A stretch of DNA of 39,240 bases from Minisyncoccota bacterium (GTDB taxonomy: Bacteria; Patescibacteriota; Minisyncoccia; Phycocordibacterales; JABAAK01): the NCBI GenBank assembly GCA_963668425.1, contig OY764332.1:1-39240 (forward strand), written 5' to 3'. The position numbers were made by a program, and so were the translations under genes. How positions within the stretch are numbered: the first letter of the stretch is position 1; each line of letters opens with the position of its first letter. Shown one piece after another: positions 250-39,240 of this stretch. The notes under the pieces were generated by a model that was not told the origin of the DNA, searched no databases, and saw nothing but the letters and a program-made list of their open reading frames with translations.

Positions 250-273
250 ACATATTTTTATATACTTTTTGTG

Positions 274-1164: not shown

Positions 1165-1229
1165 ACATATCTACTATAACACACACTACACGGAACAAAT
1201 GTTTTGATCAAGCACTATCTTGCAAGTGT

Positions 1230-1805
1230 TTATGGGCTGTAGCAGTGACTCAATAAAAACCTCCATTTTTTATCTTGCGCTTTTGTGATACCAACTCTTG
1301 GAGTTGTTCTAATGTTACCTTGCTTTTTTATTTTTGGTAAAACGTATAATAATGATTTTTTGTTTGTCATGTCAATTCCATTGTCCTTCAATGATATTTC
1401 AAATGCCTGACATATTTTTCCTGGGCCATTCGTTAAGATATCATTTCTTTTGCCACCACGATTTTTTTGCATGAGATGCATGCCTTTCATTGGTGCAATC
1501 GCGCGGATCAACACAGCACAACCTTGTCCTTTATGCTCAGAGACAATGTTCAGACAGTGATGTATGCCGTAGGAAATGTACACGTATGCATGCCCGCCGT
1601 TTGTGAACATCATTTCATTTCGCTTTGTTCGTTTTCCATTAAATGAATGTGATGCTGTGTCATTTTCGGTATATGCTTCGGTTTCAATAATCATACCTGC
1701 CATTTTTCCTAATTTTGTCTCCCGTACTACTATGCACCCGAGTAATTCTTTTGCAAGATGTACTGTAGGCACTGTAAAAAATGCTCTTGATAATCTGTTG
1801 TTCAT
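1230..1805 (-). CDS. mpg: DNA-3-methyladenine glycosylase (Mpg/AAG family)
   Basis: FFxxPTVHLAKELLGCIVV, ETEAY...DxASHS, GHAYVYxxYGxHxCLN and VLIRA motifs are characteristic of the AAG/Mpg family. Confidence 0.85.
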   Translation of the reverse strand: MNNRLSRAFFTVPTVHLAKELLGCIVVRETKLGKMAGMIIETEAYTENDTASHSFNGKRTKRNEMMFTNGGHAYVYISYGIHHCLNIVSEHKGQGCAVLIRAIAPMKGMHLMQKNRGGKRNDILTNGPGKICQAFEISLKDNGIDMTNKKSLLYVLPKIKKQGNIRTTPRVGITKAQDKKWRFLLSHCYSP

Positions 1806-2266
1806 GTTGCCGGCATGCTGTTTTCATTTTTTGCCTCCTGCTCTTGTCCTCGTTGCTTTTTTTGTTTACGGTTTCGTTTTTGCCGTTCTTTCTTTTTGTT
1901 CTTTTTATGCATTTCTGCTATTTTTTGTAAATGTGTTGATACACTTTTTTTTTCGGCGTGGACAATTTCTCGTTTACCGGTCTTTAATGTTGTGTATTTT
2001 TGTTGAGTTTCAACGATTGGCTTAGTAACCGGGTCAATTAAATCTTTTTCTACCTCATCAACACCTCGCTCATATAATGTATTAACAAAGGCGACTTCCC
2101 CCCACAGATGTTCCAGCAGCGTCTTTACCTTCTGATCTGCATACTGACGGAATTTTTTTCCGAACCGAATTCCTTTTTTTGTTTCTATTACAATAAGAGT
2201 AATATACAAGATAATAACTCCTACTGTAACAAAAAGAGAGTACGCTACAATTCCGGCAATATCCAT
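1802..2266 (-). CDS. hypothetical single-pass membrane protein with Lys/Arg-rich C-terminal tail
   Basis: Track ORF 1802..2353 was trimmed to the internal Met (MDIAGIVAYSLFVTVGVIILYITLIVI = one TM helix). The long form would overlap tsf by 68 nt. The tail reads KKNKKKERQKRNRKQKKQRGQ. The stop overlaps the mpg start (ATGA). Confidence 0.5.
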   Translation of the reverse strand: MDIAGIVAYSLFVTVGVIILYITLIVIETKKGIRFGKKFRQYADQKVKTLLEHLWGEVAFVNTLYERGVDEVEKDLIDPVTKPIVETQQKYTTLKTGKREIVHAEKKSVSTHLQKIAEMHKKNKKKERQKRNRKQKKQRGQEQEAKNENSMPAT

Positions 2267-2285
2267 GTTTATAGTATACCGCTGT

Positions 2286-2867
2286 CTACACCACCCAGAC
2301 CGCAAATCGGCCAATTTCAATCCGCTCACCAAATTTTTGCACGGACTCTTCAATTAGTTGTGCGATAGCACGAGAGTCATCTTTTACAAACATCTGCTCA
2401 AGCAGTACTACTTCTTTTAGTTTTGCATCAAGCATGCCCTGCACTATCTTTTCTTGCACTTCAGTCGGCTTGCTTGTATCTATCCCTTCTTTCAGTTCAA
2501 TTGTTATTTGTTCCAATGTCTCTGCTGGGATGCTTTCCCGGGAAAGGTACTGTGGCTGAAACGCAGCACAGTGCATTGCAATGTCCCGCGCAAGTGTGAT
2601 AAATGCTTCGTTACGTGCCACAAAATCGGTTTCACACAACATCTCAACCATCGTGCCGATGCGGTGTGTGGTATGTATATACGACTGTACTACACCTGAT
2701 CCAAGATCACGATCCGCCTTTTTTTGAACAGCAATTGCTCCTTTTTCTCGTAATATTTCCCGTGCCTTGTCCGTATCACCACTGGACTCTTCAAGTGCTT
2801 CTTTGCATTTTGCTATTGAATGACCCGTTTCATTTCTGAGCTTTTTTATTGTTGTTATATCTACCAT
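2286..2867 (-). CDS. tsf: translation elongation factor Ts (short form)
   Basis: N-terminal UBA-like segment IKKLRNETGHSIAKCKEALEESSGDTDKAREILREKG, followed by the TDFVARNEAF motif. It lies immediately downstream of rpsB, the canonical pairing. Confidence 0.9.
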   Translation of the reverse strand: MVDITTIKKLRNETGHSIAKCKEALEESSGDTDKAREILREKGAIAVQKKADRDLGSGVVQSYIHTTHRIGTMVEMLCETDFVARNEAFITLARDIAMHCAAFQPQYLSRESIPAETLEQITIELKEGIDTSKPTEVQEKIVQGMLDAKLKEVVLLEQMFVKDDSRAIAQLIEESVQKFGERIEIGRFAVWVV

Positions 2868-2870
2868 AGT

Positions 2871-3656
2871 TTATGTTTGTTTATTTTGCGTGCTGTTTGT
2901 TTTTTCCTGTGTCATATTACTGTTCTCACTGCTTTCCTCACCGTTAGTATCGACTTGTTTTACTTTTTTGTTACTCGCTCCTTTTTTATATGCTGTTTCA
3001 ACTAAGCCAAGAATGTATGCAACGGCTTCCCGAGAGTGAATATTAGCAATTATAGGTTGTTGAATACAGCGCACATCTGCGTTAGCGCTGGAAAAACCGA
3101 TGACTGATATGCCTGCACTGTTTGCCTCTTTCACTGCTATCTTCTCTTTTCGGGTATCAAGCACGAAAACTGCTTGTGGCAGCTCAGTCAATGCTGCGAT
3201 GCCAGTGAAGCGATTTTCTAGTTTTGTTAATTCTCGATTCAGTAACACCTTTTCTTTTTTAGTGTATTTTGTCCATGCACCTTCCTCTTTCTCTTTTTGC
3301 ATAGCACTCATCTTGTTTATCCTTCCTTTTATGTTGGTAAAATTTGATAATGTTCCACCGATCCATCGGTTTAGCATGTGTGGTAAGGAGAGGTTTTCTG
3401 CTGTTTGTTTTACTAGGTCAACTGTCTCTTGTCGTGTGGAGACGAATAGAATAATTTGTCCTTTCTTGCCACACTCCTCAATGGAGGTGAGGGTTTTCTC
3501 CAACAGGGTGACAATTTTTTCAATATCAAAAACTGCTCGGTTGCCCTTTTTTCCTTCAATCATAGATGCTAAAGACGGGTGGCGATATTGATTTGTTACT
3601 GCATAGTGTCCCCCAACTCGCTCTATCTCCTGAGCTATTTCCTTGTTGCTTGTCAT
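2871..3656 (-). CDS. rpsB: 30S ribosomal protein S2
   Basis: HYAVTNQYRHPSLASMI, ILFVSTRQE and NRWIGGTLSNF motifs; rpsB-tsf synteny. Confidence 0.9.
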   Translation of the reverse strand: MTSNKEIAQEIERVGGHYAVTNQYRHPSLASMIEGKKGNRAVFDIEKIVTLLEKTLTSIEECGKKGQIILFVSTRQETVDLVKQTAENLSLPHMLNRWIGGTLSNFTNIKGRINKMSAMQKEKEEGAWTKYTKKEKVLLNRELTKLENRFTGIAALTELPQAVFVLDTRKEKIAVKEANSAGISVIGFSSANADVRCIQQPIIANIHSREAVAYILGLVETAYKKGASNKKVKQVDTNGEESSENSNMTQEKTNSTQNKQT

Positions 3657-3666
3657 AATGGTATAT

Positions 3667-3696
3667 ATAATAGCATGCCACCATTGTCTCGTGCAA
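3667..3696 (-). promoter_or_regulatory. candidate rpsB promoter: TTGCAC-18nt-TGcTATTAT, with the -10 only 10 nt from the ATG (near-leaderless)
   Basis: Reverse complement reads TTGCAC GAGACAATGGTGGCATGC TATTAT ATATACCATT ATG. No SD-like purine run lies between the -10 and the ATG. Confidence 0.4.
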
Positions 3697-3720
3697 ACCT
3701 ATTTTTTGTTGTATATATAT

Positions 3721-3748
3721 GAAAAAGGCACGCTTGTAAAGCGTGCCT
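3721..3748 (-). terminator. intrinsic terminator downstream of lipoprotein gene 3766..5091
   Basis: Minus strand reads AGGCACGCTT-TAC-AAGCGTGCCT followed by TTTTTC. This is a 10-bp perfect stem, 17 nt after the stop codon. Confidence 0.7.
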
Positions 3749-3765
3749 AATGAAAAACTAAAGAT

Positions 3766-5091
3766 TTACTTGGTTACTACGAAGTCCTTGTATTCGCCTC
3801 CTAGTGCTACCATTGTATTGACAGCGATTAGGTGCTTGCCCGGGTACTGGGCGCTTCCGCCACCCAAGGCAAATACATATGTGCCCTGTGCTCTTGCCAT
3901 TGGGCTGGAGACTACCGTTATCAACTGGCCCTCTGGTTGATTTCGGTATAACAGACGCAATTGCGCTGCTGTCTCTTTCGGTACTAACCGATATCCGGCA
4001 CGGACAGTTGCCAGAATTATATCTGACATTGTGTAGATCCCGGTGAGACCTAGCTCTTCTGCCGTCACCCGATATAGGATGGTTTCTCCATCACCCCGTT
4101 CAACCTTAAACCTTGGGGAGGATAGTATTTCCTTTGCCCAAGGGCTAACCTTATACCCGAAATGTTCAAGGGCAGTTAGCATGTGATTCCCGGAGTTGTA
4201 CAGGCCGTGTGGGATGGTTTTCCATACTGTTTCTAAAGCGGGTGTTTCATCGTCTTCAACTTCAACAGTGAGCGTAGTGCTGAAAGCACTGACATCTTCA
4301 CCGTCTAGATCTTCTAGCCCGCCTTCACCGTTGTACGAAACTTCATACGTCCCACCAATAAGGTCTTTGCTCATGATGAGAGTGATTTCATCCCTGTCTT
4401 CTTCGTAACTGCGAATGCGTTTCTTTTTGTTATCAACGACAACACTGATGTTGTCTTTGATTGATCTGTACGCACTCACATCCTCAGAGAAAATTAAGAC
4501 GATTTCGTCTTCAAAGTCGCCGGCGCTGATTGTTTCAAGAGTTGGTCCAGTGGCAACCTCTCTTCGATCAATAGTCATTGTCTCGTCGGCAATCACTCTG
4601 CCGTCACGAGCGACCTCTATTTTTAAATATACTTTCTTGCCTTCTCCTCCCAGATCTGCATTTTCCAGACGGATATGAATCTCTGAGAGTGAAATATCGC
4701 CATGGGGCACCTTGACCTGGCCGAGGTATCCCCCGACCGTATAGAAGCGTATTCTATCTCTGGGAAGTAATGCCCCGTCTATTGCCTCAATGACAATGAT
4801 CTCATCATTGTCGCCTTCTGTTTCTTTGTGAGACAGAGAGACGATTAGATCATTGTGATCTGCTTCTTCGATCTGTACTATACTTGGCGCCGCCATAACG
4901 TTGTTGGTTACAGCTTTGACAATTTCAATGTCTGCCTCTCTGATAGCAGGCGCTGTGTCGGATTTTAGTTCTCCAACCATCGCTATTTCGCTCCCCTCTT
5001 CTACACTTAGGGGATTCTTGCCTTCGCAACCTATTATTCCAATAACCGCTATTGTTGCCAGTAGATACATATACATTCCGAAATTTTTCAT
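3766..5091 (-). CDS. hypothetical acidic lipoprotein (441 aa) with probable Ig-like middle region and unrecognised C-terminal domain
   Basis: Signal peptide plus lipobox MKNFGMYMYLLATIAVIGIIGC. The mature part is very rich in Asp/Glu. AAGGAG SD lies 8 nt upstream. The gene has its own consensus promoter and terminator. Confidence 0.7.
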   Translation of the reverse strand: MKNFGMYMYLLATIAVIGIIGCEGKNPLSVEEGSEIAMVGELKSDTAPAIREADIEIVKAVTNNVMAAPSIVQIEEADHNDLIVSLSHKETEGDNDEIIVIEAIDGALLPRDRIRFYTVGGYLGQVKVPHGDISLSEIHIRLENADLGGEGKKVYLKIEVARDGRVIADETMTIDRREVATGPTLETISAGDFEDEIVLIFSEDVSAYRSIKDNISVVVDNKKKRIRSYEEDRDEITLIMSKDLIGGTYEVSYNGEGGLEDLDGEDVSAFSTTLTVEVEDDETPALETVWKTIPHGLYNSGNHMLTALEHFGYKVSPWAKEILSSPRFKVERGDGETILYRVTAEELGLTGIYTMSDIILATVRAGYRLVPKETAAQLRLLYRNQPEGQLITVVSSPMARAQGTYVFALGGGSAQYPGKHLIAVNTMVALGGEYKDFVVTK

Positions 5092-5145
5092 TTCTTTTTC
5101 TCCTTAAGAGTTAATTTTCATTGTAGAAAGGTCAGTAATATTTAT

Positions 5146-5174
5146 ATTATATAGAAAGATTGTTAATTTGTCAA
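5146..5174 (-). promoter_or_regulatory. consensus sigma70-type promoter for lipoprotein gene 3766..5091
   Basis: Reverse complement reads TTGACA (5174-5169), then the 17-nt spacer AATTAACAATCTTTCTA, then TATAAT (5151-5146). The ATG lies about 55 nt downstream, preceded by AAGGAG. Confidence 0.6.
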
Positions 5175-5400
5175 ATATATGATATTTCTGTCCTATATAC
5201 AGTAAAATACCTTGATTTTGCTGTGTTTTCCGTGGCATATGCGGTTTCTGTCCTCATACTTGAACTTGCCTTTATTGGCAAAATATGGCAGAATAAGTAC
5301 AGTTTATGTCAGAAAACGGCACACACACCATTTTCTGCTGACCCTTGTACAGTTCCTTTTACGCTCTTTTTACACTATTATTAACTTAACTAATACAATT

Positions 5401-6519
5401 ATGAGTAACGTGTTTAAGAACTCGTTACTGATTATCGTAGCGGTGATTATCTGCGTTGTTACCTCATTAGTAGGTAGCAGAGCATTTGCACAATCAGAGT
5501 TGCTTTTCCCTGTTTCAAAGAATGTTTCATATATTGCACCAAGCATAGATGTTGTCTTTGCTAATCACCTTCAAGTGGATGTATTTGCTGACAGTACCAT
5601 GAATACACATGTTGTTCTTGTGGATACTGATACAGATACTTACATTGAGGAGGTGCCTGCGGAAGATAGCTTCATTGTCCGATCAAGTTTACGTTTCCCT
5701 GTTCGTCAGAGAGCGTCATACACTGCACCAAGCATAGATGTTGTCTTTGCCAACCACCTTCAAGTGGGTGTATTTGCTGACAGTACCATGAGCACACATA
5801 CTGTTCTTATGGATGCTGCTGTAAATTCATACATTGAAGAGGTATATGTTGAAGATACTTTTCTTGCTCGTTCAGAGTTGCGTTTTCCGGTTGTAAAGAG
5901 AGCGTCATACACTGCACCGGACCTGGAAGTTGTTTTTGTTGGAATCTCTTATAATGAGATATCTGTTGCTGATGGAACTACTGACAAAAGAAGCTTTACT
6001 ACTACAAAGAAACAGAAAAAGATAGCACAAAAAATTACTTCTCTTCGTGAGCAGGTTGCTGATTTAGAACAGCGAATTGCATTACTAAAAGAGAATGCTA
6101 CTGCTAATGATTTTGGTTGTGGCTCGTGTGGAACCCATGTTAAGAACCTTCAGAGGTTTCTTAATCGAAAAGGTTTCATTCTTGCGACTACTGGAGCAGG
6201 TTCAATTGGATCGGAAACTTCATTTTTTGGTCCACGAACACTTGCGGCGTTGAAAAACTTTCAGTCAGCATATGCTATTCCTGTGACTGGTGTGGTAGAT
6301 TTGCGAACAAGAGACCTGATTGACAGTATTGAGAGCAATGTGCTCGGTAAGATTATCACTGTAAATTGTGTAACTCCAAATAAAAAGAGTGGACAAGAGG
6401 AAATTATCCGGAACGATCAGAATGATAAAGATGGTACTAAAAGTATATCCGGAAACTTTTTTACCAACTTATTCAAGAAGATCGTTGATTTCTTCCGAAA
6501 CCTTTTTTTGATCGCGTAA
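5401..6519 (+). CDS. secreted protein with three 63-aa tandem repeats, a coiled-coil segment and a peptidoglycan-binding (PG_binding_1-like) domain
   Basis: Track ORF 5212..6519 was trimmed to the in-frame ATG at 5401, which gives a signal peptide MSNVFKNSLLIIVAVIICVVTSLVGSRAFAQ. The PG-binding-like segment is VKNLQRFLNRKGF...FGPRTLAALKNFQSAYAIPVTGVVD. Confidence 0.7.
   Translation: MSNVFKNSLLIIVAVIICVVTSLVGSRAFAQSELLFPVSKNVSYIAPSIDVVFANHLQVDVFADSTMNTHVVLVDTDTDTYIEEVPAEDSFIVRSSLRFPVRQRASYTAPSIDVVFANHLQVGVFADSTMSTHTVLMDAAVNSYIEEVYVEDTFLARSELRFPVVKRASYTAPDLEVVFVGISYNEISVADGTTDKRSFTTTKKQKKIAQKITSLREQVADLEQRIALLKENATANDFGCGSCGTHVKNLQRFLNRKGFILATTGAGSIGSETSFFGPRTLAALKNFQSAYAIPVTGVVDLRTRDLIDSIESNVLGKIITVNCVTPNKKSGQEEIIRNDQNDKDGTKSISGNFFTNLFKKIVDFFRNLFLIA
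5497..5945 (+). repeat. tandem in-frame coding repeats, period 189 nt (2 full copies plus 1 partial)
   Basis: Units start at 5497, 5686 and 5875 (ELLFPVSKNVSY.. / SLRFPVRQRASY.. / ELRFPVVKRASY..). The cores gcaccaagcatagatgttgtctttgc..caccttcaagtgg.tgtatttgctgacagtaccatga are nearly identical at the DNA level between copies 1 and 2. Confidence 0.9.
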
Positions 6520-9399: not shown

Positions 9400-9837
9400 T
9401 TATACACGTCTTGGTTTTTTGCGACGTGGTCCGTTATGTGGTACTGGTGTTCTGTCGCGAATGGAGTGTATGACGAAACCCCTGTTTAGAAACGAACGAA
9501 GCGCTGATTCTCTTCCGCTTCCAACACCTTTTACGATAATATCTACGTCTTTAACACCTACTGCTGTTGCTTTTTCGGCAACTGCTTCTGCAACTTTTGC
9601 CGCCGCATACGGTGTCGCCTTTTTTGCACTACTGAAGCCAAGCGTACTACTGGTTACCCACATTACTACATTGCCATTTGGTTCAGTGAATAACACTTTG
9701 GTGTTATTAAAAGTTGCCTCAACAAAGATGATGCCTTTATTGATTTTCTTTTTTGGAATTTTAGAAAGAACACGTGTTCTTTTTCCTGAATCACCCCTAT
9801 TCTGCTCAACTTTATTTGCTGTTCGCTTTTTTCCCAT
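9400..9837 (-). CDS. rpsK: 30S ribosomal protein S11 (with a short basic N-terminal extension)
   Basis: GIIFVEATFNNTKV, GFSSAKKATPYAA, VKGVGSGRESALR and DRTPVPHNGPRRKKPRRV. Confidence 0.9.
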   Translation of the reverse strand: MGKKRTANKVEQNRGDSGKRTRVLSKIPKKKINKGIIFVEATFNNTKVLFTEPNGNVVMWVTSSTLGFSSAKKATPYAAAKVAEAVAEKATAVGVKDVDIIVKGVGSGRESALRSFLNRGFVIHSIRDRTPVPHNGPRRKKPRRV

Positions 9838-9838
9838 A

Positions 9839-10216
9839 CTACTTCTTCTGTAATTTTACTCGTCCAGAGCCCATGGTTTTCACAGGACCTTTTCTTGTTC
9901 GTGCATTTGTTTTTGTTCGTTGGCCACGAACTGGCAATCCAACATTGTGGAAGTGTCCGCGTAAGGTCTGTATGTCTTTTAGTCGTTTGATGTTCTGTGC
10001 TACCGTTCGACGCAAGTCACCTTCAACAGTATATTCTTCAATTTTTTTGCGAATTGCAGTTTCTTGATCCATGTTTAAATCCCTAACCTTGCTGGTCGGG
10101 TCTATGGATAAATCTTCCAGAATATTTGCTGCTCGTGATTGACCGATGCCGTGCACCGCCATGAGCGCGATTCTCAAATGTTTTTTTTCAGGTATATTTA
10201 CTCCAACAATACGCAT
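9839..10216 (-). CDS. rpsM: 30S ribosomal protein S13
   Basis: MRIVGVNIPEKKHLRIALMAVHGIGQSRA, GDLRR and RGQRTKTNARTRKG. Confidence 0.9.
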   Translation of the reverse strand: MRIVGVNIPEKKHLRIALMAVHGIGQSRAANILEDLSIDPTSKVRDLNMDQETAIRKKIEEYTVEGDLRRTVAQNIKRLKDIQTLRGHFHNVGLPVRGQRTKTNARTRKGPVKTMGSGRVKLQKK

Positions 10217-18159: not shown

Positions 18160-19299
18160 TTACGTGAGAAAATATTTTTCATACATCTCAGGACTTTGTG
18201 CGATTAGCGCGGTGCCTCGTGCGACAAGTCCAGTTGTGTTTTCTGGCACTACTATACGCAGATTCAGTATTTCCTCAATTTTTTTAGGGAATGAGTGTAT
18301 TGCAGGTCCACCGCCGACAAAATATATGTTATTATTTTTTAAATCTGCTTGTACTTCTGGTGATGATTGCCCTACGAACATGCCGATATGTTCAGCAATT
18401 TTCCTCAAGTGTGGTTCAAGAAATTGAATAATTTCGTCAAATGATACTTTTGCTTCAAGCGGTAGTCCGGTACTGCTACTCCTACCTTGCACACTGAACA
18501 CCGTTTGCTCATTTGCTGATTGCATGGTTGCAATTTTTAAATCTTCTGCAACCCGCCCCCCAATGATAATCTGTTTTTTCTCCTTAAGCCCTTCAACAAT
18601 TGCTGTATCAAATGCATCACCTGCGACTCGCATACTGCTTGAAGCGACTATTTCCCCTCCGGCAAGGATCATCGCATCACTAGTACCACCACCAACATCA
18701 ATCACCATAATTGCTGTTTCACTCATTAGCGGTAAATCTATGCCAACTGCTGCTGCAAATGGCTCATATACAATGCCCATACGTCGTGCCCCTGCATCAA
18801 TAACTGCATCTCGCACTGCATTTATCTCTGCCTGCGAGGTGCGACATGGAACTCCGATTATCACTGAAGGGTTGAAAATCTTTGGTGATGCATTTTGTAC
18901 TTTTCTAAAAATATGTTCAAATAACTGCTCGGTTATTTCATAATCATTTATAACCCCTAACTGTATTGGCTGTATTACTTCTATATGTTCTGGTGTTCGT
19001 CCAATCATTTGTCGCGCTCGTTTTCCTACGGCAACCACCTGATCTGTTCTCTTATTTACTGCAACTAATGTTGGCTCCCGCATCACTATTCCCTTACCTC
19101 CCACATACACAACGGTAGTTGCGGTACCGAGGTCAATGCCTACTTGATTTTCAAATGATCCCAAAAAATATCTTGTATTTTTTTTCAGTGCCCCTGCTTC
19201 CTTTTTTTTTCGTGCTACTTGTTGATGCAGTTTTTTTTTCTGTAAAATGCTTGTGTCATTGCTTCTAACTTCCTTTTTTTCTCTTGATGTGTTTGCCAT
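18160..19299 (-). CDS. mreB: rod shape-determining actin homolog MreB with a roughly 50-aa basic N-terminal extension
   Basis: VGIDLGTATTVVYV, REPTLVAV, IGVPCRTSQAEINAVRDA, VIDVGGGTSD and YFVGGGPAI motifs. No in-frame ATG exists between 19299 and the GIDLGT motif. A TTG at about 19176 would be the only short alternative. Confidence 0.85.
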   Translation of the reverse strand: MANTSREKKEVRSNDTSILQKKKLHQQVARKKKEAGALKKNTRYFLGSFENQVGIDLGTATTVVYVGGKGIVMREPTLVAVNKRTDQVVAVGKRARQMIGRTPEHIEVIQPIQLGVINDYEITEQLFEHIFRKVQNASPKIFNPSVIIGVPCRTSQAEINAVRDAVIDAGARRMGIVYEPFAAAVGIDLPLMSETAIMVIDVGGGTSDAMILAGGEIVASSSMRVAGDAFDTAIVEGLKEKKQIIIGGRVAEDLKIATMQSANEQTVFSVQGRSSSTGLPLEAKVSFDEIIQFLEPHLRKIAEHIGMFVGQSSPEVQADLKNNNIYFVGGGPAIHSFPKKIEEILNLRIVVPENTTGLVARGTALIAQSPEMYEKYFLT

Positions 19300-26107: not shown

Positions 26108-27067
26108 CTATACTTCATTCGGAGCTTTCCCACCATGCAATACTGCTATAATATTTTCTGCTACCATTTTCGCCATTTTCGCTCGAGTTGTAATGCTTGC
26201 AGATGCAATATGTGGTGTTAAAACAACGTTTGGCAGATTTCTAAGAGCGGCGGGTACGTCTGGTTCATTTTCAAATACATCAAGACCGGCACCGAATATT
26301 TTTTGCTTTTGTAGTGTGGTGATCAATGCTTTCTCATCAATTACCGCTCCTCGTGAGGTGTTTACTAATATTGCGTTTGACTGCATCATGGACAATGTAT
26401 GTGCGTTAATATAATGATAGGTCATATCATTTAGTGGTAAATGTACTGATACAACTTCTGACTTTCGTAAAACCTCTTCAGGGCTGCCACATTGTTCAGC
26501 ACCTGTTTTTTCCTCTAACATTTTATTTTTTTGTACATCGTGATATATAATTTCCATGCCAAGTGCCTTTCCTATTTCTGCAACCCGAGAACCAATGCGC
26601 CCCGCACCAATAACCCCAAGTGTTTTTCCCGACAAATCAATGCCGAGTAACAATTTTGGCTTCCAACCAGTAAATCTTTTTGCTCGTACGAATGCATCTG
26701 CCTCTACAATTCGTGTTGCCACTGCAAAAATAAGTGCAAATGTATGCTCTGCGACAGTTTCAGTTAATACCCCTGGTGTGTTTGTGATGGTGATTCCACG
26801 CTCTTTTGCTTTTTGCACATCTATGTTATTGAACCCGACTGCATAATTTGCTATCACCTTCATTTGAGTGCCGACTGCATCCAAAACCTCCTCATCAATG
26901 GTATCAGTCAATAGTGTAATCATCCCATCGTATGCTTCTTTTTTTAGTGCCGCAATAAGTGTACTTTTTCGAACTGTCTTTTTTTTGAGGACGTGCATCT
27001 CAATAGCATGTTCACGTAGCAATGCCAGTCCTTCATCAGGAATATCCTGCGAGATAAGGATTTTCAT
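26108..27067 (-). CDS. D-isomer-specific 2-hydroxyacid dehydrogenase (glyoxylate/hydroxypyruvate reductase-like)
   Basis: Trimmed to MKILISQDIP... The NAD-binding motif is GKTLGVIGAGRIGSRVA. Also LINTSRGAVID, and catalytic LDVFENEP with TPHIASA. Confidence 0.85.
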   Translation of the reverse strand: MKILISQDIPDEGLALLREHAIEMHVLKKKTVRKSTLIAALKKEAYDGMITLLTDTIDEEVLDAVGTQMKVIANYAVGFNNIDVQKAKERGITITNTPGVLTETVAEHTFALIFAVATRIVEADAFVRAKRFTGWKPKLLLGIDLSGKTLGVIGAGRIGSRVAEIGKALGMEIIYHDVQKNKMLEEKTGAEQCGSPEEVLRKSEVVSVHLPLNDMTYHYINAHTLSMMQSNAILVNTSRGAVIDEKALITTLQKQKIFGAGLDVFENEPDVPAALRNLPNVVLTPHIASASITTRAKMAKMVAENIIAVLHGGKAPNEV

Positions 27068-27076
27068 ACTTTTTAT

Positions 27077-27085
27077 AGTATACCA
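27077..27085 (-). promoter_or_regulatory. extended -10 TGGTATACT 9 nt upstream of the dehydrogenase ATG (leaderless-type arrangement)
   Basis: Reverse complement of 27065-27086 reads C TGGTATACT ATAAAAAGT ATG. Confidence 0.4.
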
Positions 27086-27093
27086 GTAAAGTA

Positions 27094-27657: not shown

Positions 27658-27751
27658 AGTGCCGCTGCAATAAGTGTGCTCTTAGCAATGCCAGTCCTTC
27701 ATCAGGAATATCCTGCGAGATAAGGATTTTCATACTTTTTGTAGTATACCA
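27641..27751 (-). pseudogene. duplicated, internally deleted 5' fragment (promoter plus first codons) of the 2-hydroxyacid dehydrogenase gene
   Basis: 27683-27751 matches 27017-27085 with one mismatch. 27654-27680 matches 26941-26964 with a 3-nt insertion and one substitution. The 52 nt at 26965-27016 are missing, which shifts the frame. The result is MKILISQDIPDEGLALLRAHLLQRH followed by a stop. Confidence 0.8.
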
Positions 27752-27778
27752 AGAAAAATGGATATATTCTTGTTATTC

Positions 27779-33528: not shown

Positions 33529-33572
33529 CTCTCATAATAGTATCCTTTTTTACTACAGTCAATTTTACACAT

Positions 33573-34595
33573 CTAGGCACTGCATTGAGGCGCTTCTTCA
33601 ATTCCTTTATATTTTTTAATGGCATGTTGCAATGTTTGTGTGAATGCTAACTGTGCATTTAGTATATTTTCTTCTTTTCCTTTCCATTCATTTAGTACTG
33701 GTTCTTGCAATGCTCGGGCATATGAAAATGAAAGTGGTGTTGAAAACTCTTCCTGCTCAGCAAGCGCTTTAATGCGCTGTATATATGCAATTGCCGTTTT
33801 TGACTCTAACCCACCTGAGAGAAAGACAATGCCATAAAAACTTTTATTTCCACTGAGTCCAGTTTCTTTGAATACTGTTAGCGTCCTCCTTGCCGCCTCT
33901 TCTGCCGGTTGCACACCCCCTGTCAATCCATCTGTTATAAATGATGTTTTTAAAATACACTGTTGTGGATTGCACTTCTTTTCTGCAAGGGCGGCAAGCA
34001 CTGCTGGCATTACTTTTTTGAAAGTTTCTTCAGTTGCCTCAATAGTGTGATCGCCACTTAACAGCAATTCTGGCTCTATGATGGGCACTAACTCATTGGC
34101 TAAGGCACAGTGTGCATATGCTGCCATATCTGTTGCCACGGCTTTTATGAATTCGTCTGTTGCACCAACAACTGGAATTGCTGATCGCCATTTTGTGAAT
34201 GTTGCTCCTTGTTGTTGATACTGCTTGCAGCGTTCGCCTAACCCCTCTAACCCTTTTGTTCTTTTGAGTGTATCGCTGCTCTTATATGGCTCTAACCCAC
34301 CGTCAACTTTAACACCGACTGCAATACGTATCTCCTGCAAAAAATCTCTGGTCGGCACATCACCCATGGTGTGTTTTATAAATGTATCTTCTGATAGGAT
34401 GATGCCGCTGATGGTTCGTTCAAGATTTGGTGTTGAAAAGAGTATTTCTCGATACTGATTTCGCATCAACTCTCCGCTTTTGATACCATGTTCTGCTAAG
34501 CGACGATCCATAGATGACGGTCGCTCATCTGCCGCAAGAATACCCTTATACGGCTGAAAAATTGTTGTTACTGTAGTATCAATGTTTGTGTTCAT
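33573..34595 (-). CDS. fructose-bisphosphate aldolase, class I
   Basis: GILAADERPSSMDRRL, GIILSEDT, VGVKVDGG, KWRS, EPELLLSGDH, the Schiff-base region ILKTSF and FLSGG. Confidence 0.85.
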   Translation of the reverse strand: MNTNIDTTVTTIFQPYKGILAADERPSSMDRRLAEHGIKSGELMRNQYREILFSTPNLERTISGIILSEDTFIKHTMGDVPTRDFLQEIRIAVGVKVDGGLEPYKSSDTLKRTKGLEGLGERCKQYQQQGATFTKWRSAIPVVGATDEFIKAVATDMAAYAHCALANELVPIIEPELLLSGDHTIEATEETFKKVMPAVLAALAEKKCNPQQCILKTSFITDGLTGGVQPAEEAARRTLTVFKETGLSGNKSFYGIVFLSGGLESKTAIAYIQRIKALAEQEEFSTPLSFSYARALQEPVLNEWKGKEENILNAQLAFTQTLQHAIKKYKGIEEAPQCSA

Positions 34596-34597
34596 AC

Positions 34598-35029
34598 TTA
34601 TGCACTTTTTTCTATAATCACGGTGATTGATTTCTCACCCTGCTTGTAGTGTATCGTATATTCACCGACCTCTTTAATCGGGTCCATTGAAAACTGCTGT
34701 GGTGCGGTTGGAATATCCTGCTTGCCAAGGTGTTGTACGATAGTATCTGCGGTAACGGCACTAAACAGTGTTCCTTGGTCGTTTGCAGGCACTTGTAGTG
34801 TGATTGTATCTGGTAGCATTTTTACAATACTTTGCTCTTCTTCAGCCCGCTCTTCTCGTTGCTGGTCCTGTGCTGTTTTTTGCCGTGCTACTTGCGCGCC
34901 TTGTGCGTCTTTTGTTTCAAGGGCTTTTTTCTTTGGTATGAGAAAATTCAATGCATATCCGTCACCGACACTACATACATCACCCCGTACCCCAAGCCCC
35001 TTTATATCTTCTAATAGCACGATTTTCAT
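34598..35029 (-). CDS. rplI: 50S ribosomal protein L9
   Basis: MKIVLLEDIKGLGVRGDVCSVGDGYALNFLIPKKKA is the canonical L9 N-terminal domain. Confidence 0.85.
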   Translation of the reverse strand: MKIVLLEDIKGLGVRGDVCSVGDGYALNFLIPKKKALETKDAQGAQVARQKTAQDQQREERAEEEQSIVKMLPDTITLQVPANDQGTLFSAVTADTIVQHLGKQDIPTAPQQFSMDPIKEVGEYTIHYKQGEKSITVIIEKSA

Positions 35030-35067
35030 TACCAAGAGTATACCACAGGCAAGGCATATATATGTAT

Positions 35068-36084
35068 CTATTTAGATTTTATAACCCATTTATGAAAATC
35101 CAAATGTCCGCTTTGCATGCTTCGTCCGATTCCCCGTATTACAGCATGCTCCGGCTCATCAGCAATTTGGACTGGCACGTTAATATGCTTGCTGATCTCT
35201 ATATCAAGTCCGTGTAGTTTTGCCACGCCACCTGTCAAAATCAACCCTCTGTCAATAATATCTGAGGTTAACTCTGGTGGCGTGCTTTGAAATACGCTTG
35301 CTATCGCATCTAAAATCATCTTGACTTCTCCACGAATTGCATCAGCAATATCATTAGCAGTAACCCGCACTATGCGTGGCAGTTTGTTTCGTGCATCCCC
35401 TCCCTTTACCTTTATTTCTTTTGGATTGACTACCTGCATCGCAGACCCGATCTTTTCTTTCACCCTTCGTGCGGTGCCCTTACTGATGAGCAGTTGATGA
35501 TGTCGCTCCACATGAGCCACGATAGATGCATCCATGTCATTGCCACCAACTTGTACCGTGCTATTGCTGCTGGCACCTCCTAGAGAAATGACCGCCGTCT
35601 CTGTTAAACCTGCGCCGATGTCAGCAACCATACGTCCATGTAATTCATCTTTATGCATACCAACCCCAAGTGCTGCTAAAATTGCATTCTCTTCAGTAAA
35701 TACATGTCTCATACCTGCTCGCCTGCAGGTTTGAATGGCTGATCTTTGTTGCATGTTGGTTGCGCTGGTTGGCACGCCGACTAGTGCATCCCGCCGGATA
35801 CATGTAAACATGCCGTTTGATTGCTTGAAAACCTTCCGTAAATATTGCTCAACTATTTTTTCATCCTGTATCGCACCACAGATGATAATATGCTGCGCTT
35901 CAGTCCGCTGATTTGCTCGTTCCATCATTTCTTTGGCATCACTGCCGATGCAAATCATCTCTTTTTTATCCAGCGCTACAATGCTTGGTTCGTCAAATAC
36001 TATACCTTTGTACGGCACATATAGTCGTGTCCGAGAAGTCCCCATATCTATGCCAATATTCCGCGAAAACGAAAAAATACCCAT
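35068..36084 (-). CDS. divergent MreB/actin-like paralog
   Basis: Trimmed to MGIFSFSRNIGIDMGTSRTRLYV (an MreB-like N-terminus). Also has DEPSIVA, VGVPTSATNMQQRSA, VADIGAGLTE and LTGGVAKLHGL. Identity to the mreB at 18160..19299 is clearly lower than is typical for duplicate MreBs. Confidence 0.75.
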   Translation of the reverse strand: MGIFSFSRNIGIDMGTSRTRLYVPYKGIVFDEPSIVALDKKEMICIGSDAKEMMERANQRTEAQHIIICGAIQDEKIVEQYLRKVFKQSNGMFTCIRRDALVGVPTSATNMQQRSAIQTCRRAGMRHVFTEENAILAALGVGMHKDELHGRMVADIGAGLTETAVISLGGASSNSTVQVGGNDMDASIVAHVERHHQLLISKGTARRVKEKIGSAMQVVNPKEIKVKGGDARNKLPRIVRVTANDIADAIRGEVKMILDAIASVFQSTPPELTSDIIDRGLILTGGVAKLHGLDIEISKHINVPVQIADEPEHAVIRGIGRSMQSGHLDFHKWVIKSK

Positions 36085-36159
36085 ATATACCGTGTTATGT
36101 AGATAGCATACCATATTCACCACCTGCATCTCTTTATGCAATACGTTATACTAGTGTGT

Positions 36160-36447
36160 ATGGATACCATTGGCAGTCATATAGAGCGTTTTATGGTCAG
36201 CAATCAGAATCGCCCGACTTCAGAGCGCGCGCATCTTATCCAGATGGTGTGTGATACCCTTTTTGACGATACACACTTTAAAAAAATTCTCGGGCAAACT
36301 CACCAATTTACTCTAGAAGAAATTCGCGATATATTTAATCAAGCGAAATCTTGGCACGTTAATCCAAAAGCCCTCTTTTGGAAACTCGTCCGCGAAAAAC
36401 AGCGGGAGATTAAAACACAACTCACTGAAACAGAGCAGACACAGTAA
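36160..36447 (+). CDS. hypothetical small protein
   Basis: ORF with a helical, charged C-terminus (KLVREKQREIKTQLTETEQTQ). The start is uncertain (36136, 36160 or 36193). No motif was recognised. Confidence 0.4.
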   Translation: MDTIGSHIERFMVSNQNRPTSERAHLIQMVCDTLFDDTHFKKILGQTHQFTLEEIRDIFNQAKSWHVNPKALFWKLVREKQREIKTQLTETEQTQ

Positions 36448-36547
36448 GGATAACCCTACAACCATCACCGGCGTGCTGTGGGTGTGTTTTTCAGGATTCA
36501 GATTATTGCGTGTATAGTATATAGTATCCTATACTATGTAGGTATAT

Positions 36548-36622
36548 TCCGCGGTAGCTCAGCGGTAGAGCAACCGGCTGTTAACCGGTAGGTCGCAGGT
36601 TCGAATCCCGCCCGCGGAGCCA
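36548..36622 (+). tRNA. tRNA-Asn (anticodon GTT), CCA encoded
   Basis: Manual cloverleaf of 75 nt: acceptor tccgcgg/ccgcgga, D arm gctc-agcggta-gagc, anticodon arm accgg-cTGTTAa-ccggt, variable aggtc, T arm gcagg-ttcgaat-cccgc (one A-C mismatch), discriminator g, then cca. Confidence 0.85.
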
Positions 36623-36671
36623 GACAGAATAGTGTTTGAATTTGAAAAACATCTTGAAGACACTTCGCACG

Positions 36672-36860
36672 CTCCACCTTCCACGCCATCTCACCCACAT
36701 TTTCTTTTGCCTTTCAAGTGCGCGTAGTCGCAAAAACACACTACACAGACCTTTTACTGCTCTAGTGTTCTTCACCGGCACAGCCCTGCGATAAGCGTGC
36801 GAAAAGGGGCGGCGGGAAAATTGAAAAAGAAAAGCGAGGGTGAGATGGTGTGGGAGGAGT
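36672..36860. repeat. approximately 190-nt imperfect palindrome (MITE-like) between tRNA-Asn and the R-M cassette
   Basis: The left arm is ctccaccttccacgccatctcaccc..ttttctttt..caa..gtgcgcgtagtcgca. It pairs with the reverse complement of the right arm tgcgataagcgtgc..ttgaaaaagaaaagcgagggtgagatggtgtgggaggag. Confidence 0.6.
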
Positions 36861-36908
36861 ATTAGGAATTCGCCTATGCATCATTCCCTGACATAGGCGG
36901 ATTTCCTT
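36846..36908. repeat. left inverted repeat (IR-L) of the R-M cassette
   Basis: tggtgtgggaggagtattaggaattcgcctatgcatcattccctgacataggcggatttcctt is the reverse complement of 38566-38628 with 2 mismatches. It contains an internal 8-bp hairpin (cgcctatg/cataggcg) and a GAATTC site. Confidence 0.9.
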
Positions 36909-36918
36909 AATCAATTTG

Positions 36919-37590
36919 TTATTTATTTTTCCAGAATTTTCGCACCTTCTGAAAATATTCAATCCTTTCATTGATTTTAGCGATCTCCTTTGGATAGAAC
37001 TCAAAAAGAGTATCACACATCTCCAACATCCATTTTTTGCGCGATTGCTTTTCCTTGATTTTTATAATGTTGGAGTTTGCAATTTGTATTTGACCCCAAC
37101 CTAAAGCACCAAGGGTAAGACACTGCCATGAAAAAAACTCTATTGGTTTAAATAGAACTTGCTTAATCATAAATTTTTTATTTGTAATCTCATAGTCAAT
37201 TTTTAAAATAACAAAATTATTTTTGTCATCTTCATAAAATCTACTCAAGCGTTCTACCGATGTGAGGTTAGGCATGTTAAACTCGGTGTCTAATCTATGT
37301 GTCTTTACATCAACGATGTAGTAATTACCATCTTTATCATAAAACGCCAAATCAGCCATTGCGCGCCTTGCAAAAGAAACAGAGGGCTCTCTTATATTTG
37401 AATCATTGCCTAATAAATCATCAATTATTTTCTGGAAGTTTTTTTCCAAAATATTTTGTATAGCATCCCCCACTGCGCGCGGGCTATCTAGTGTTTGTCG
37501 TGATAGAAAATTTGGATGCGATAACAAAAAATCTAGCACCCGTTTTTCAATATCCTTATGGATACCTCGTGTGAAAATATTTTTTGCCAT
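36919..37590 (-). CDS. putative type II restriction endonuclease (PD-(D/E)xK-like)
   Basis: 223 aa, starting 6 nt downstream of the methyltransferase stop. The candidate catalytic motif is AMADLAF...YYIVDVKTH (D...DxK). No closer family was recognised. Confidence 0.55.
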   Translation of the reverse strand: MAKNIFTRGIHKDIEKRVLDFLLSHPNFLSRQTLDSPRAVGDAIQNILEKNFQKIIDDLLGNDSNIREPSVSFARRAMADLAFYDKDGNYYIVDVKTHRLDTEFNMPNLTSVERLSRFYEDDKNNFVILKIDYEITNKKFMIKQVLFKPIEFFSWQCLTLGALGWGQIQIANSNIIKIKEKQSRKKWMLEMCDTLFEFYPKEIAKINERIEYFQKVRKFWKNK

Positions 37591-37596
37591 ATAGTA

Positions 37597-38526
37597 TTAG
37601 TTAAACGCATTTCGCTCCCAAAAGATTCCGTCAACATATCCTTGTATACATTTATCTTTTCTTGCCTGTCGTAATCTTTTTTGAGCAATGAGACAATATT
37701 GTTTATCAATCTCAATCCCAACATGTTTTCTATTGAGTTTTTCCGCAACGACAGAAGTAGTACCTGAACCAAGGAACGGATCAAAAACAATGTCATCTTC
37801 ATTTGAACTCGCTAAAAGTATTTTAGCTAATAACTTTTCCGGTTTTTGTGTCGGATGTTCCGTATTTTCTTTCATAGACCAAAATGGAATTGTTATATCG
37901 GTCCAGACATTTGAAGGAAATGTATCCCGATAGCCAATACTGCCAGGACCAAACTCCCAATCTTTCGGTTTTCCATTTTCTCTATAAGGTGCAACGACTT
38001 TTTTCCTTAGTTTTATCGTCTCAACATTAAAGGTGTATGCATCGGAATTGGTGCAAAAAAATATATCCTCTGAACAGTTCTTATAATTTGTTTTTGCCCC
38101 CCTACCTTTCTCTCTTTCAAAGGTTATTCTATTTCTTACTTTAAAGTATTTATTCAAAACAGTATATAACGCAGAGCTTGAGCGCCAATCACCACATACA
38201 TAGATTGATGCGTCATAGGTAAGTTTGTCTTTTAATCTTGAGATCCATTTTTCAGTGTACTCTTCATATGATTGTATATCCATTTTTTTGAAAGTTACAT
38301 CATTAAACTTTTTGTCTATGTTGTATGGCGGATCTGCAAAAACAAGATTGACGAAATTATTTGGCAATAGATCAAGTGTACCAAAAACATCTTGATGTAA
38401 TACTTTATTCTCTACATCTTTTGGTTGAACCTTTTCTTCAATAGAAATAACATATTCTTCAGAAAAAGATTTCTCACCATCATTTAAAACCAAAGTTTTA
38501 TTTCTTGATTTTATTTCTGTTTCCAT
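37597..38526 (-). CDS. DNA methyltransferase, beta-class amino-MTase (N6-adenine or N4-cytosine)
   Basis: Motif IV (FADPPYN) precedes motif I (VFDPFLGSGTT), which is the beta permutation. Also has HPTQKPEKL. The ATG at 38526 is preferred over the track TTG at 38532. Confidence 0.85.
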   Translation of the reverse strand: METEIKSRNKTLVLNDGEKSFSEEYVISIEEKVQPKDVENKVLHQDVFGTLDLLPNNFVNLVFADPPYNIDKKFNDVTFKKMDIQSYEEYTEKWISRLKDKLTYDASIYVCGDWRSSSALYTVLNKYFKVRNRITFEREKGRGAKTNYKNCSEDIFFCTNSDAYTFNVETIKLRKKVVAPYRENGKPKDWEFGPGSIGYRDTFPSNVWTDITIPFWSMKENTEHPTQKPEKLLAKILLASSNEDDIVFDPFLGSGTTSVVAEKLNRKHVGIEIDKQYCLIAQKRLRQARKDKCIQGYVDGIFWERNAFN

Positions 38527-38532
38527 AATCAA

Positions 38533-38541
38533 ATTATAGCA
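38533..38541 (-). promoter_or_regulatory. extended -10 TGCTATAAT 6 nt upstream of the methyltransferase ATG (leaderless-type arrangement)
   Basis: Reverse complement of 38524-38541 reads TGCTATAAT TTGATT ATG. The element lies inside the cassette, just internal to IR-R. Confidence 0.45.
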
Positions 38542-38565
38542 ATAAAATATAGGATTAATTGAACA

Positions 38566-38628
38566 AAGGAAATCCGCCTATGTCAGGGAATGATACATGG
38601 GCGAATTCCTAATACTCCTCCCACACCA
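38566..38628. repeat. right inverted repeat (IR-R) of the R-M cassette
   Basis: aaggaaatccgcctatgtcagggaatgatacatgggcgaattcctaatactcctcccacacca is the reverse complement of IR-L apart from 2 mismatches. Confidence 0.9.
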
Positions 38629-38819: not shown

Positions 38820-39240
38820 ATGTTTTTCAAAAACCGTGCAGTTAATTCTGCAAAAAAGATGCAAGAGGTGCTTACACATCTCTCAAGCATACAACCTTGG
38901 CAGGATGCAGTTATAAAGAACGTTCTTAGATTTCTCAACAATAAAGTAAAGCATCTTCTGTCAGAAGAAAAAACGATTGTGCCTTCGAGAAATCTTTTCA
39001 TCATCCCAAGAGAGTCATTGGCAAAACACGGATATGGATCTATGTGGATTGGCGGATATATGCCAAAGGCAAACTTGATTGTGCTGAGTAATCAATTGGC
39101 ATCAAATCAGTTCGCGTTAGTACATGGGGTTATACACGAAACGACCCACTTCATGGCAGAAAAAGAATGGCAGAAAAATTTCTGGCATTTAGAAGAAGGG
39201 GTAACATGTGAAATCACCAGAAGGACGCAGAAACAATACG
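38820..39240 (+). CDS. hypothetical protein with HExxH zinc-metalloprotease-like motif, 5' part only (runs off window)
   Basis: Own translation from ATG 38820: MFFKNRAVNSAKKMQEVLTHLSSIQPWQDAVIKNVLRFLNNKVKHLLSEEKTIVPSRNLFIIPRESLAKHGYGSMWIGGYMPKANLIVLSNQLASNQFALVHGVIHETTHFMAEKEWQKNFWHLEEGVTCEITRRTQKQY. There is no stop before the window end. The SD is 9 nt upstream. It is open-ended, so it is absent from the track. Confidence 0.6.
   Translation, partial: MFFKNRAVNSAKKMQEVLTHLSSIQPWQDAVIKNVLRFLNNKVKHLLSEEKTIVPSRNLFIIPRESLAKHGYGSMWIGGYMPKANLIVLSNQLASNQFALVHGVIHETTHFMAEKEWQKNFWHLEEGVTCEITRRTQKQY

Follow-up and report, generated by a model that had tools for sequence, protein, structure and literature searches.

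Close to the right end of a 39,240-nt stretch of Minisyncoccota DNA (contig OY764332.1; the whole stretch is called the window here), a Type II restriction-modification (R-M) gene pair, consisting of a methyltransferase gene (M) and an endonuclease gene (R), lies between the two arms of a near-perfect inverted repeat (IR). With about even confidence, we explain the locus as a tRNA-linked defense slot in which a resident hairpin element, designated E, is faced by an inverted [E-M-R] cassette and the two E copies were later homogenized. Comparison with 16 related loci (numbered L001, L002, and so on) suggests that the arms are copies of a lineage-specific hairpin element and not private transposon ends. 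The features that carry the argument are the following.

36846 to 36908, plus strand: left IR arm, a copy of E co-oriented with tRNA-Asn and placed in the tRNA trailer just as E is in L010, L008, and L005
38566 to 38628, minus strand: right IR arm, a second copy of E, inverted relative to the tRNA and directly upstream of the M promoter
37597 to 38526, minus strand: M gene (309 amino acids [aa]), a beta-class N6A/N4C DNA methyltransferase with DPPY; ATG at 38526
36919 to 37590, minus strand: R gene (223 aa), a predicted Type IIP restriction endonuclease of the EcoRV/HincII/SwaI structural branch, starting 6 nt past the M stop codon
38533 to 38541, minus strand: putative extended -10 element TGCTATAAT, 6 nt upstream of the M ATG and inside the unit, read from the sequence
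36907 to 38578, minus strand: transferable M-R cassette, a block of DNA homology that ends at or just inside the inner arm edges
36548 to 36622, plus strand: tRNA-Asn (GTT), found by ARAGORN, with an Rfam tRNA score of 70.6 bits
36677 to 36857, no strand assigned: HPE, a 181-nt hairpin element with arms at 36677-36708 and 36826-36857 and a 117-nt center

The inverted repeat and the gene pair between its arms

A repeat search of the window paired the left and right arms over 63 nt at 97% complementarity with a spacer of 1,657 nt. A base-by-base alignment shows 61 matches over the 63 positions; the two mismatches (T/C and C/T) fall in the apical part of the hairpin. The pair is by far the longest and best inverted repeat of the whole window: such an arm pair is expected by chance about 1e-25 times anywhere in 39 kb, and a 30-mer taken from the arm occurs at only two places in the window and gave 0 matches in 100 shuffles. 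Each arm contains a GAATTC site and the stem cgcctatg/cataggcg, which has one G-T or mismatch position in the right arm, and the predicted fold of an arm, whether as RNA or as DNA, has a stem of about 14 bp (-21.6 kcal/mol for the left arm). M and R, both on the minus strand, are the only credible genes between the arms. The interior has a G+C (GC) content of 0.328 compared to 0.401 for the remaining window, which places it under the minimum (0.367; mean, 0.399) of 350 same-size windows drawn from the remaining sequence. The GC content of the arms (0.476) resembles that of the adjacent intergenic DNA, not that of the cassette. tRNA-Asn ends 223 nt before the left arm.

An initial annotation, made from the letters of the window and a list of its open reading frames (ORFs), had described this unit in much the same terms. 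Its two-mismatch repeat, its AT-richer interior, and its tRNA gene about 220 nt away all hold, as does its statement, confirmed by the ORF listing, that the arms enclose only a methyltransferase and a 223-aa ORF. The 8-bp hairpin and GAATTC site in each arm, and a consensus extended -10 element at 38541-38533 that places the M promoter inside the unit, were confirmed by inspection of the sequence. The annotation was likewise right that no transposase or integrase accompanies the unit: a survey of the 30 largest window ORFs upstream of the tRNA returned housekeeping genes and neither these nor any other recombinase.

The identity of M is clear from several sources. It matches Pfam N6_N4_Mtase (PF01555) over the whole profile (E = 6.5e-45), PADLOC MTase_II (4.5e-67), and beta-class enzymes in the PDB (M.BceJIV at 5e-27, and also M.MboII, CcrM, and M.RsrI). 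The motifs FLGSGTT and DPPY are both legible in the translation, and M is placed in the beta class because DPPY precedes FxGxG. The start at ATGGAAACAGAA is kept in L001; an alternative in-frame start upstream, TTG, lies at 38532. The spacing of TGnTATAAT, 6 nt, and ATG is also found in L001, L005, and L006, and a simple promoter scan did not list the extended -10 element. From the position of this element, the M-R transcript would putatively be leaderless or nearly so.

R matched no Pfam, NCBIfam, or PADLOC family and no protein in the plasmid and phage collections searched, and the sole result of a PDB sequence search was a spurious match, of low complexity, to a RecA fusion construct. Its homologues make up 4,392 clusters (90% identity), all unnamed, in Patescibacteria and several other phyla, at 64 to 94% identity. 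In an alignment of 34 of these homologues, D80 and D94-V-K96 are invariant. An AlphaFold2 model of R (predicted local distance difference test [pLDDT] score, 82.8; predicted template modeling score [pTM], 0.81) was compared to known structures with Foldseek, where the top 39 matches were HincII (E = 1.5e-6) and SwaI (template modeling [TM] score, 0.69), followed by DpnI and EcoRV. HincII, SwaI, and EcoRV constitute the blunt-cutting EcoRV branch of the PD-(D/E)xK Type IIP endonucleases. Sequence identity of R to such enzymes is only 13 to 17%, and the model supports the prediction that the 223-aa protein is a Type IIP restriction endonuclease. That M and R form a genuine Type II R-M module is supported because M has its family matches, R has the fold and the invariant D...DxK residues, and the M-to-R adjacency is kept in 11 other genomic contexts. 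The pairing of a beta-class DPPY methyltransferase with a PD-(D/E)xK-like ORF that the initial annotation proposed was therefore borne out, with R-M relatives found for M by sequence and for R by predicted fold. With more than 4,000 clusters, a HincII/SwaI-like predicted fold, and a beta-class methyltransferase as its constant partner, the R family represents a very large, highly conserved, and unannotated family of Type II endonucleases that merits its own family definition.

Hairpin elements and cassettes next to tRNA genes

E is a hairpin element of about 70 nt with a 5' box (TGGTGYGGGAGRA), a hairpin with an 8-bp outer stem (AAYYCRCC/GGYGGRTT), and a 3' box, TTTCCTT (GGYGGRTTTCCTT). A profile built only from copies in relatives (L001, L006, L008, and L010) has exactly two full-length matches in the 39-kb window. 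These are the right arm (38630-38561; E = 2.8e-5) and the left arm (36844-36911; E = 6.8e-5); the next match has an E value of 19. Across the window and the 16 loci (about 210 kb), E occurs once per related locus and nowhere else. In every relative locus where it was found, it lies downstream of a tRNA gene and is co-oriented with it, the tRNA being tRNA-Asn in L010, tRNA-Ala in L001, L005, and L008, and tRNA-Leu in L006. Identity between the arms is 97%, compared to only 49 to 57% between the arms and the E copies of relatives, and both arms have in common a window-specific apical part. Every copy is predicted to fold into a long, stable hairpin with UUUCCUU after it. In an alignment of five sequences, 97.5% of cells in the outer stem are paired and two pairs show compensatory changes; 48 of 500 shuffles score as high. 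When the arms, HPE, and E were searched against Rfam, both in the window and in five loci, the only results were tRNAs and subthreshold noise from microRNA-like hairpins. Two other readings of the arm were rejected. Its outer end, CCTCCCACACCA, was considered as a tRNA-like acceptor 3' end plus CCA, for which ARAGORN and Rfam gave nothing, no match to the tRNA-Asn 3' end was found, and no T-arm could be drawn. The other reading was a mini-ORF within the 5' box (ATGGTGTGGGAGGAGTATTAG), which L008 and L010 do not conserve.

The closest syntenic relative shows that E can precede other cargo. Window positions 33558-36629 align to L010 positions 8574-5489 and no further. Since synteny with this relative ends about 7 nt past the 3' end of tRNA-Asn, the tRNA marks the start of a variable (defense) region. 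L010 belongs to a metagenome-assembled genome of Candidatus Kaiserbacteria whose MreB is 88% identical in amino acid sequence to that of the window. (The window has two MreB-family genes, at 35068-36141 and 18160-19299, and the one beside the tRNA-Asn locus was the anchor for finding relatives; its identity to the Kaiserbacteria protein places the window in Patescibacteria/Paceibacterota.) In L010, tRNA-Asn is followed by about 50 nt of unrelated sequence, then E, and then a different R-M system (positions 1-5450) with an HTH_3 controller (C-protein), a BglII-family endonuclease, and a convergent N6_N4 methyltransferase. Beyond these lie a Shedu (SduA_C) gene and a gene for a HerA-like/DUF87 ATPase, so that the whole forms a compact defense island. 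The left arm in the window has the same position and orientation as E in L010. Because the cargo behind E differs in L010, the slot is a defense hot spot and E is independent of the M-R cassette. GTDB contained only two relatives of the locus: in L010 the slot holds the other R-M system, and in L009 a tRNA-Val lies beside MreB. A 95-aa protein next to the locus in the window (P0121) clusters with two further sequences.

At the far side, the window stops 612 nt past the right arm, and within it there is neither a repeat of the tRNA-Asn 3' end nor an integrase. One further feature lies there.

38820 to 39240, plus strand: partial ORF of at least 140 aa with HETTH (an HExxH-like motif), divergent from M

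This ORF has 0 homologues in 5.8 billion proteins, no Pfam or PADLOC match, and no similarity to L010. Since it lacks any detectable homologue or family, the variable region probably continues past the window end.

The left IR arm shares its first 12 nt (TGGTGTGGGAGG) with the right arm of HPE. Compact homologues of HPE found by BLASTN follow tRNA-Ala in L001, L005, and L008, with three copies in L001. In general form, HPE is a long hairpin of 100 to 180 nt with arms CCTYCCRCGCCATCTC.../...GAGATGGTGYGGGAGG and a block GGGCGGCGNNNAAATTGAAAAAGAAAAG, and the 5' box of E forms the end of its right arm. The copies lie at 4850-4969, 9725-9827, and 11646-11712 in L001, at 1839-1953 in L005, and at 2673-2741 in L008. 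Because L001 holds three copies in 12.7 kb, one of them away from any tRNA, HPE may be a dispersed repeat.

Of the four arm boundaries, two recur in relatives. The junction of HPE with the E 5' box is common to the left arm of the window, L001, and L005. The junction GGRTTTCCTT|TGTTCA...TGnTATAAT-6 nt-ATG, where the ATG is that of M, is common to the right arm (which reads TTTCCTT|TGTTCAA), L001, L006, and L005, and in these three relatives E lies directly before the M promoter of the same cassette. Since relatives have the same junctions, the left outer boundary (HPE|E) and the right inner boundary (E|promoter) are ancestral and not insertion junctions. L005 has the layout of the window, namely, tRNA, HPE, and E, followed by R and M in reverse orientation with an E 3' box preceding M; its two E copies have diverged.

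The cassette itself is found in many settings. By BLASTN, it is 91.7% identical to L001 over 1,672 nt (window positions 36907-38578), 85.7% identical to L005 (36903-38575), 83.7% identical to L006/L007 (36914-38575), 83.6% identical to L002, and 76% identical to L003, with slightly less covered in L002, L003, and L008. The shared block consists of the interior and at most about 13 nt of the inner arm edges, and flanking genes differ in every context. M and R overlap or are 6 nt apart in the fully sequenced contexts (L001 to L003, L008, L014 to L016, and the window). The contig of L005 ends within M, the M of L006/L007 is broken into two ORFs, and L011 to L013 entered the comparison through R alone. 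The cassette family is strongly linked to tRNA genes: of its 12 distinct contexts, 7 have a tRNA gene within 600 nt and 9 have one within 2.5 kb. Horizontal acquisition of the cassette is supported, since its interior is a GC outlier and it shares 92% nucleotide identity with L001 in an unrelated context. Inverted repeats like those of the window are absent from the 11 other contexts. The only other inverted repeat around the cassette is a different one of 427 nt (91% identical) in L001, which encloses the cassette and an ABC-type ATPase gene beside a large serine recombinase.

Two side observations concern these loci. In L001 (2891-10149), which has the closest relative of the cassette, a repeat of 160 to 430 nt is present in three copies, at 2962-3123 (forward), 4526-4951 (inverted), and 9725-10149 (forward), which begin exactly at the tRNA-Ala 3' end. 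The copies bracket first the gene for a 528-aa large serine recombinase, with the C-terminal part of its coding sequence within the repeat, and second E-M-R together with a 911-aa SMC_N/AAA_21 ATPase that has PADLOC Ppl/AriA-like matches. L001 looks like a two-segment invertible or rearranging defense locus. Elsewhere, partial or degenerate tRNA duplicates (Val, Leu, and Glu), together with upstream regions, lie between the intact tRNA and M, as they do in L003 (4377-4490 versus 4970-5054) and L006 (3156-3242 versus about 3300-3372), or beside other R-M genes (for L002, 2500-3003). Such duplicates would be the signature expected of repeated integration at tRNA genes.

Origin of the bracketed arrangement

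In the explanation we favor, the slot would begin right after tRNA-Asn in a Kaiserbacteria-like (Patescibacteria) genome, and the M-R cassette, running from the extended -10 promoter through the beta-class DPPY methyltransferase and a 6-nt gap to the endonuclease with its EcoRV/HincII/SwaI fold, would have been acquired into it horizontally. The left arm would be the resident E of the tRNA trailer. The right arm would be the E of the M leader, which could have arrived as part of an [E-promoter-M-R] segment in inverted orientation. Gene conversion between the close inverted copies, or a recent inverted duplication, may then have made the two 97% identical; either event is proposed because the arms are so much closer to each other than to any other E and share a unique apical hairpin. 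We infer that E is a conserved patch where cassettes are exchanged, and also that, as a hairpin followed by a U-rich tract, it may serve as a terminator or insulator that blocks outside transcription into the cassette, notably tRNA read-through antisense into R. Both copies face outward-in, so they would stop transcription entering the cassette. Passive inversion of the cassette via the arms could occur with no effect on expression because the promoter is internal.

Several points weigh against this explanation. The homogenization is deduced from its outcome, and before it the two copies would have had only about 13 nt in common at each end of E, a short stretch for RecA-type conversion. Only 6 to 7 copies of the E family are known, and its covariation is weak, given the shuffles cited above. 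A scan for terminator patterns did not call E, because the loop is too long (13 nt) and the T tract is interrupted, and the right arm lies in a divergent promoter region with little incoming transcription to stop. No empty site was found among the GTDB relatives. The failure to find further arm copies spans the window, the 16 loci, and exact k-mers; it is possible that window-type arms exist elsewhere in the 696-kb source genome. Finally, the model leaves unexplained how an inverted [E-M-R] segment came to be inserted flush against a resident E.

One alternative is that the arms are terminal inverted repeats for a transposase encoded elsewhere and that the 1.78-kb unit was inserted, and could move, whole as a transposon-like, nonautonomous R-M unit like those that Furuta et al. 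(2010) described. The long imperfect repeat (61/63) has the form of terminal inverted repeats and closely encloses M and R and nothing else, the interior deviates in composition, and the arms are far more alike than either is to any related element. A precedent of nearly the same geometry, with a 60/65 IR unique in its genome, has been published for X. oryzae (PMC2853133). We nonetheless regard this alternative as unlikely. No direct repeat of 2 nt or more is present at the outer ends, where the flanks read ...GGGTGAGA| and |GTTGGGGA (left, ...AGCGAGGGTGAGA; right, GTTGGGGAGCTTG...). No further arm copy was found in the window or in the 16 related loci. An exact 23-mer, GGGAGGAGTATTAGGAATTCGCC, had 0 matches in 185,579 species-representative GTDB genomes, an exact 24-mer, TCCCTGACATAGGCGGATTTCCTT, had 0 matches in JGI metagenomes (241 million records), and degenerate patterns for E and HPE had 0 matches in IMG/VR. 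Eleven other contexts hold the cassette without such arms, and the ORFs surveyed in the 39 kb include no transposase. The HPE|E and E|promoter junctions are kept in relatives that lack the IR, and therefore the arms did not arrive jointly as the two ends of a single insert.

The initial annotation had proposed a vehicle of this kind, likened to a miniature inverted-repeat transposable element (MITE), and the same evidence, together with the single-copy E of relatives, speaks against that proposal. The extra copies or solo IRs that it looked for did not appear in the window, the related loci, or the exact k-mer searches. It had also pointed to the tRNA-Asn locus of relatives as a place to see the unit present or absent beside a target-site duplication; L010 is occupied and keeps the left-arm homologue, and the window has no duplication. 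The annotation had tied its idea to the IR recurring beyond this locus. As far as the searches reach, the IR occurs only here and relatives have the genes without repeats, although they carry the cassette at other loci and not at an identical junction.

A second alternative is an invertible segment, in which the arms are sites for a recombinase encoded elsewhere, or for homologous recombination, and the cassette flips within the population. Close inverted repeats of 63 nt are competent for inversion, and the orientation of the cassette does differ between loci, being M-proximal to the tRNA and HPE in L001 and R-proximal in the window and L005. The 427-nt repeat around the L001 cassette and ATPase gene, next to its large serine recombinase, fits the same idea. 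Against it, the promoter and both genes lie inside the arms, so that inversion alters no fusion or obvious expression state, two mismatches persist between the arms, and no invertase was seen among the window ORFs surveyed. We think it improbable that inversion accounts for the arrangement. Of the suggestion in the annotation that the unit might be invertible as a whole without changing a gene fusion, the part on fusions stands, since promoter and genes are internal.

It is about equally improbable that a small dispersed hairpin repeat of some 65 nt, similar to repetitive extragenic palindromic (REP) sequences or MITEs, was inserted twice independently, in inverted orientation by chance, with the near-identity of the arms reflecting a young family. 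E and HPE do act like small palindromic intergenic repeats, as the three HPE copies in L001 illustrate, and the conserved ends and variable centers of E resemble REP-like families. However, the roughly 37 kb of housekeeping DNA in the window contains no other copy, about 170 kb of related loci contain no more than one per locus, and both copies in the window sit at positions with direct positional homologues in relatives.

We speculate, with little confidence, that E and HPE together form the recognition site of an undescribed exchange or inversion system that shuffles defense cassettes (R-M types, Shedu, and others) after tRNA genes in Kaiserbacteria-type Patescibacteria, and that the R-M pair was caught between two such sites. 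More doubtful still is the variant in which E is a structure-specific site analogous to attC and belongs to an undescribed cassette-capture system at tRNA-linked defense islands, the R-M pair having been captured at E. Conserved E ends around a variable hairpin with compensatory changes, the different cassettes that E borders (M-R in the window, L001, and L006; C-R/M in L010), and the stop of cassette homology at the E 3' box on both sides would suit such a system, but integrase-type capture yields direct and not inverted repeats, E has no similarity to the attC R'/R'' consensus, an integron-type integrase was not seen in any fetched locus, and the known copies of E are few. Insertion of the cassette into the center of a pre-existing perfect palindrome was ruled out because relatives carry one E that is not palindromic.

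Recognition sites, other features, and known systems

Site-avoidance analysis gave no motif that could be assigned to the M-R pair. GTNNAC-type sites, which the HincII and M.BceJIV matches suggest, are not avoided in the host, and GAATTC is not avoided in the window (7 observed versus 11 expected). As a separate observation, AGNCT is almost absent from the window, with 2 sites (3909 and 30854) versus about 105 (trinucleotide Markov model) to 136 (base composition) expected. It is also depleted in L002 (2/47), L015 (3/48), and L016 (1/44) and mildly so in other relatives. Within the M-R cassettes, AGNCT occurs 0 times in depleted hosts and 2 to 3 times elsewhere. Because these counts track the host and not the cassette, AGNCT is not assigned to this R-M system. 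The pattern suggests that some of these lineages may have been under long-standing restriction pressure of another kind, specific for AGNCT; this pentanucleotide is not mentioned in the literature searched.

Two repeats elsewhere in the window were also recorded. A direct repeat of 82 nt (93% identical; 27009-27090 and 27675-27756, 666 nt apart) lies around the 5' end of a 2-hydroxyacid dehydrogenase gene, and a tandem repeat of two 189-nt units (77%; 5486-5863) lies inside a gene for a peptidoglycan-binding protein (5212-6519).

Among characterized R-M systems, the pair is most like those of the EcoRV branch, R by its predicted fold (HincII, SwaI, and EcoRV) and M by its sequence (M.BceJIV, with GTWWAC, as well as M.MboII, CcrM, and M.RsrI). 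It differs from HincII, SwaI, and EcoRV themselves in the low identity of R and in the absence of R from any Pfam, NCBIfam, or PADLOC family.

The consensus of attC sites is R''/L''...L'/R' (RYYYAAC...GTTRRRY), and such sites have a linked IntI. Like them, E is a cassette-boundary element with conserved ends and a hairpin of conserved structure and variable sequence. Unlike them, E has no IntI; the arm sequence lacks the consensus, none of the fetched loci showed a tyrosine recombinase, the copies are inverted and not direct, and the cassette has its own promoter. Composite units mobilized by MITEs also exist, for example, MITE-flanked integrons in Acinetobacter. The locus shares with these the placement of two short, inverted, hairpin-forming noncoding copies around genes, but E was not seen as a multicopy transposable family and there are no target duplications. 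E is a small conserved hairpin that marks the tRNA-proximal edge of defense slots in reduced genomes. If E were a recombination site, it would explain the turnover of defense cassettes in organisms almost without classical mobile elements.

The slot resembles tRNA-linked genomic or defense islands in its break of synteny after the tRNA 3' end, its differing defense genes, and its cassette of deviant GC content. It is unlike typical islands of this kind in that neither an integrase nor a direct repeat of the tRNA 3' end is visible in the window, the far end of the island lying outside it.

The closest published parallel is with R-M systems that have long imperfect inverted repeats and were described as "transposon-like structures" (Furuta, Abe, and Kobayashi 2010, NAR 38:2428; PMC2853133). 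The X. oryzae Type II system with the 60/65 IR was validated by an 8-bp target duplication and an empty site (PMC2853133). The unit described here agrees with those units in being a compact Type II R-M pair with no mobility gene and with imperfect IRs of about 63 to 65 nt that are not found elsewhere. It differs in that the window has no duplication and no empty site was found, and in that its arms appear to come from a pre-existing local element family with single-copy positional homologues. IR flanks alone are therefore not evidence of transposon-like mobility of an R-M system, because the "terminal repeats" trace here to a resident tRNA-linked hairpin and to the leader of the cassette itself. 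The arrangement is real but fairly ordinary, since IR-bracketed R-M systems were already described in 2010 and it involves no new mobility mechanism. The IR-bracketed R-M pair described here occupies a tRNA-linked defense island in a poorly studied lineage, the Patescibacteria/candidate phyla radiation (CPR).

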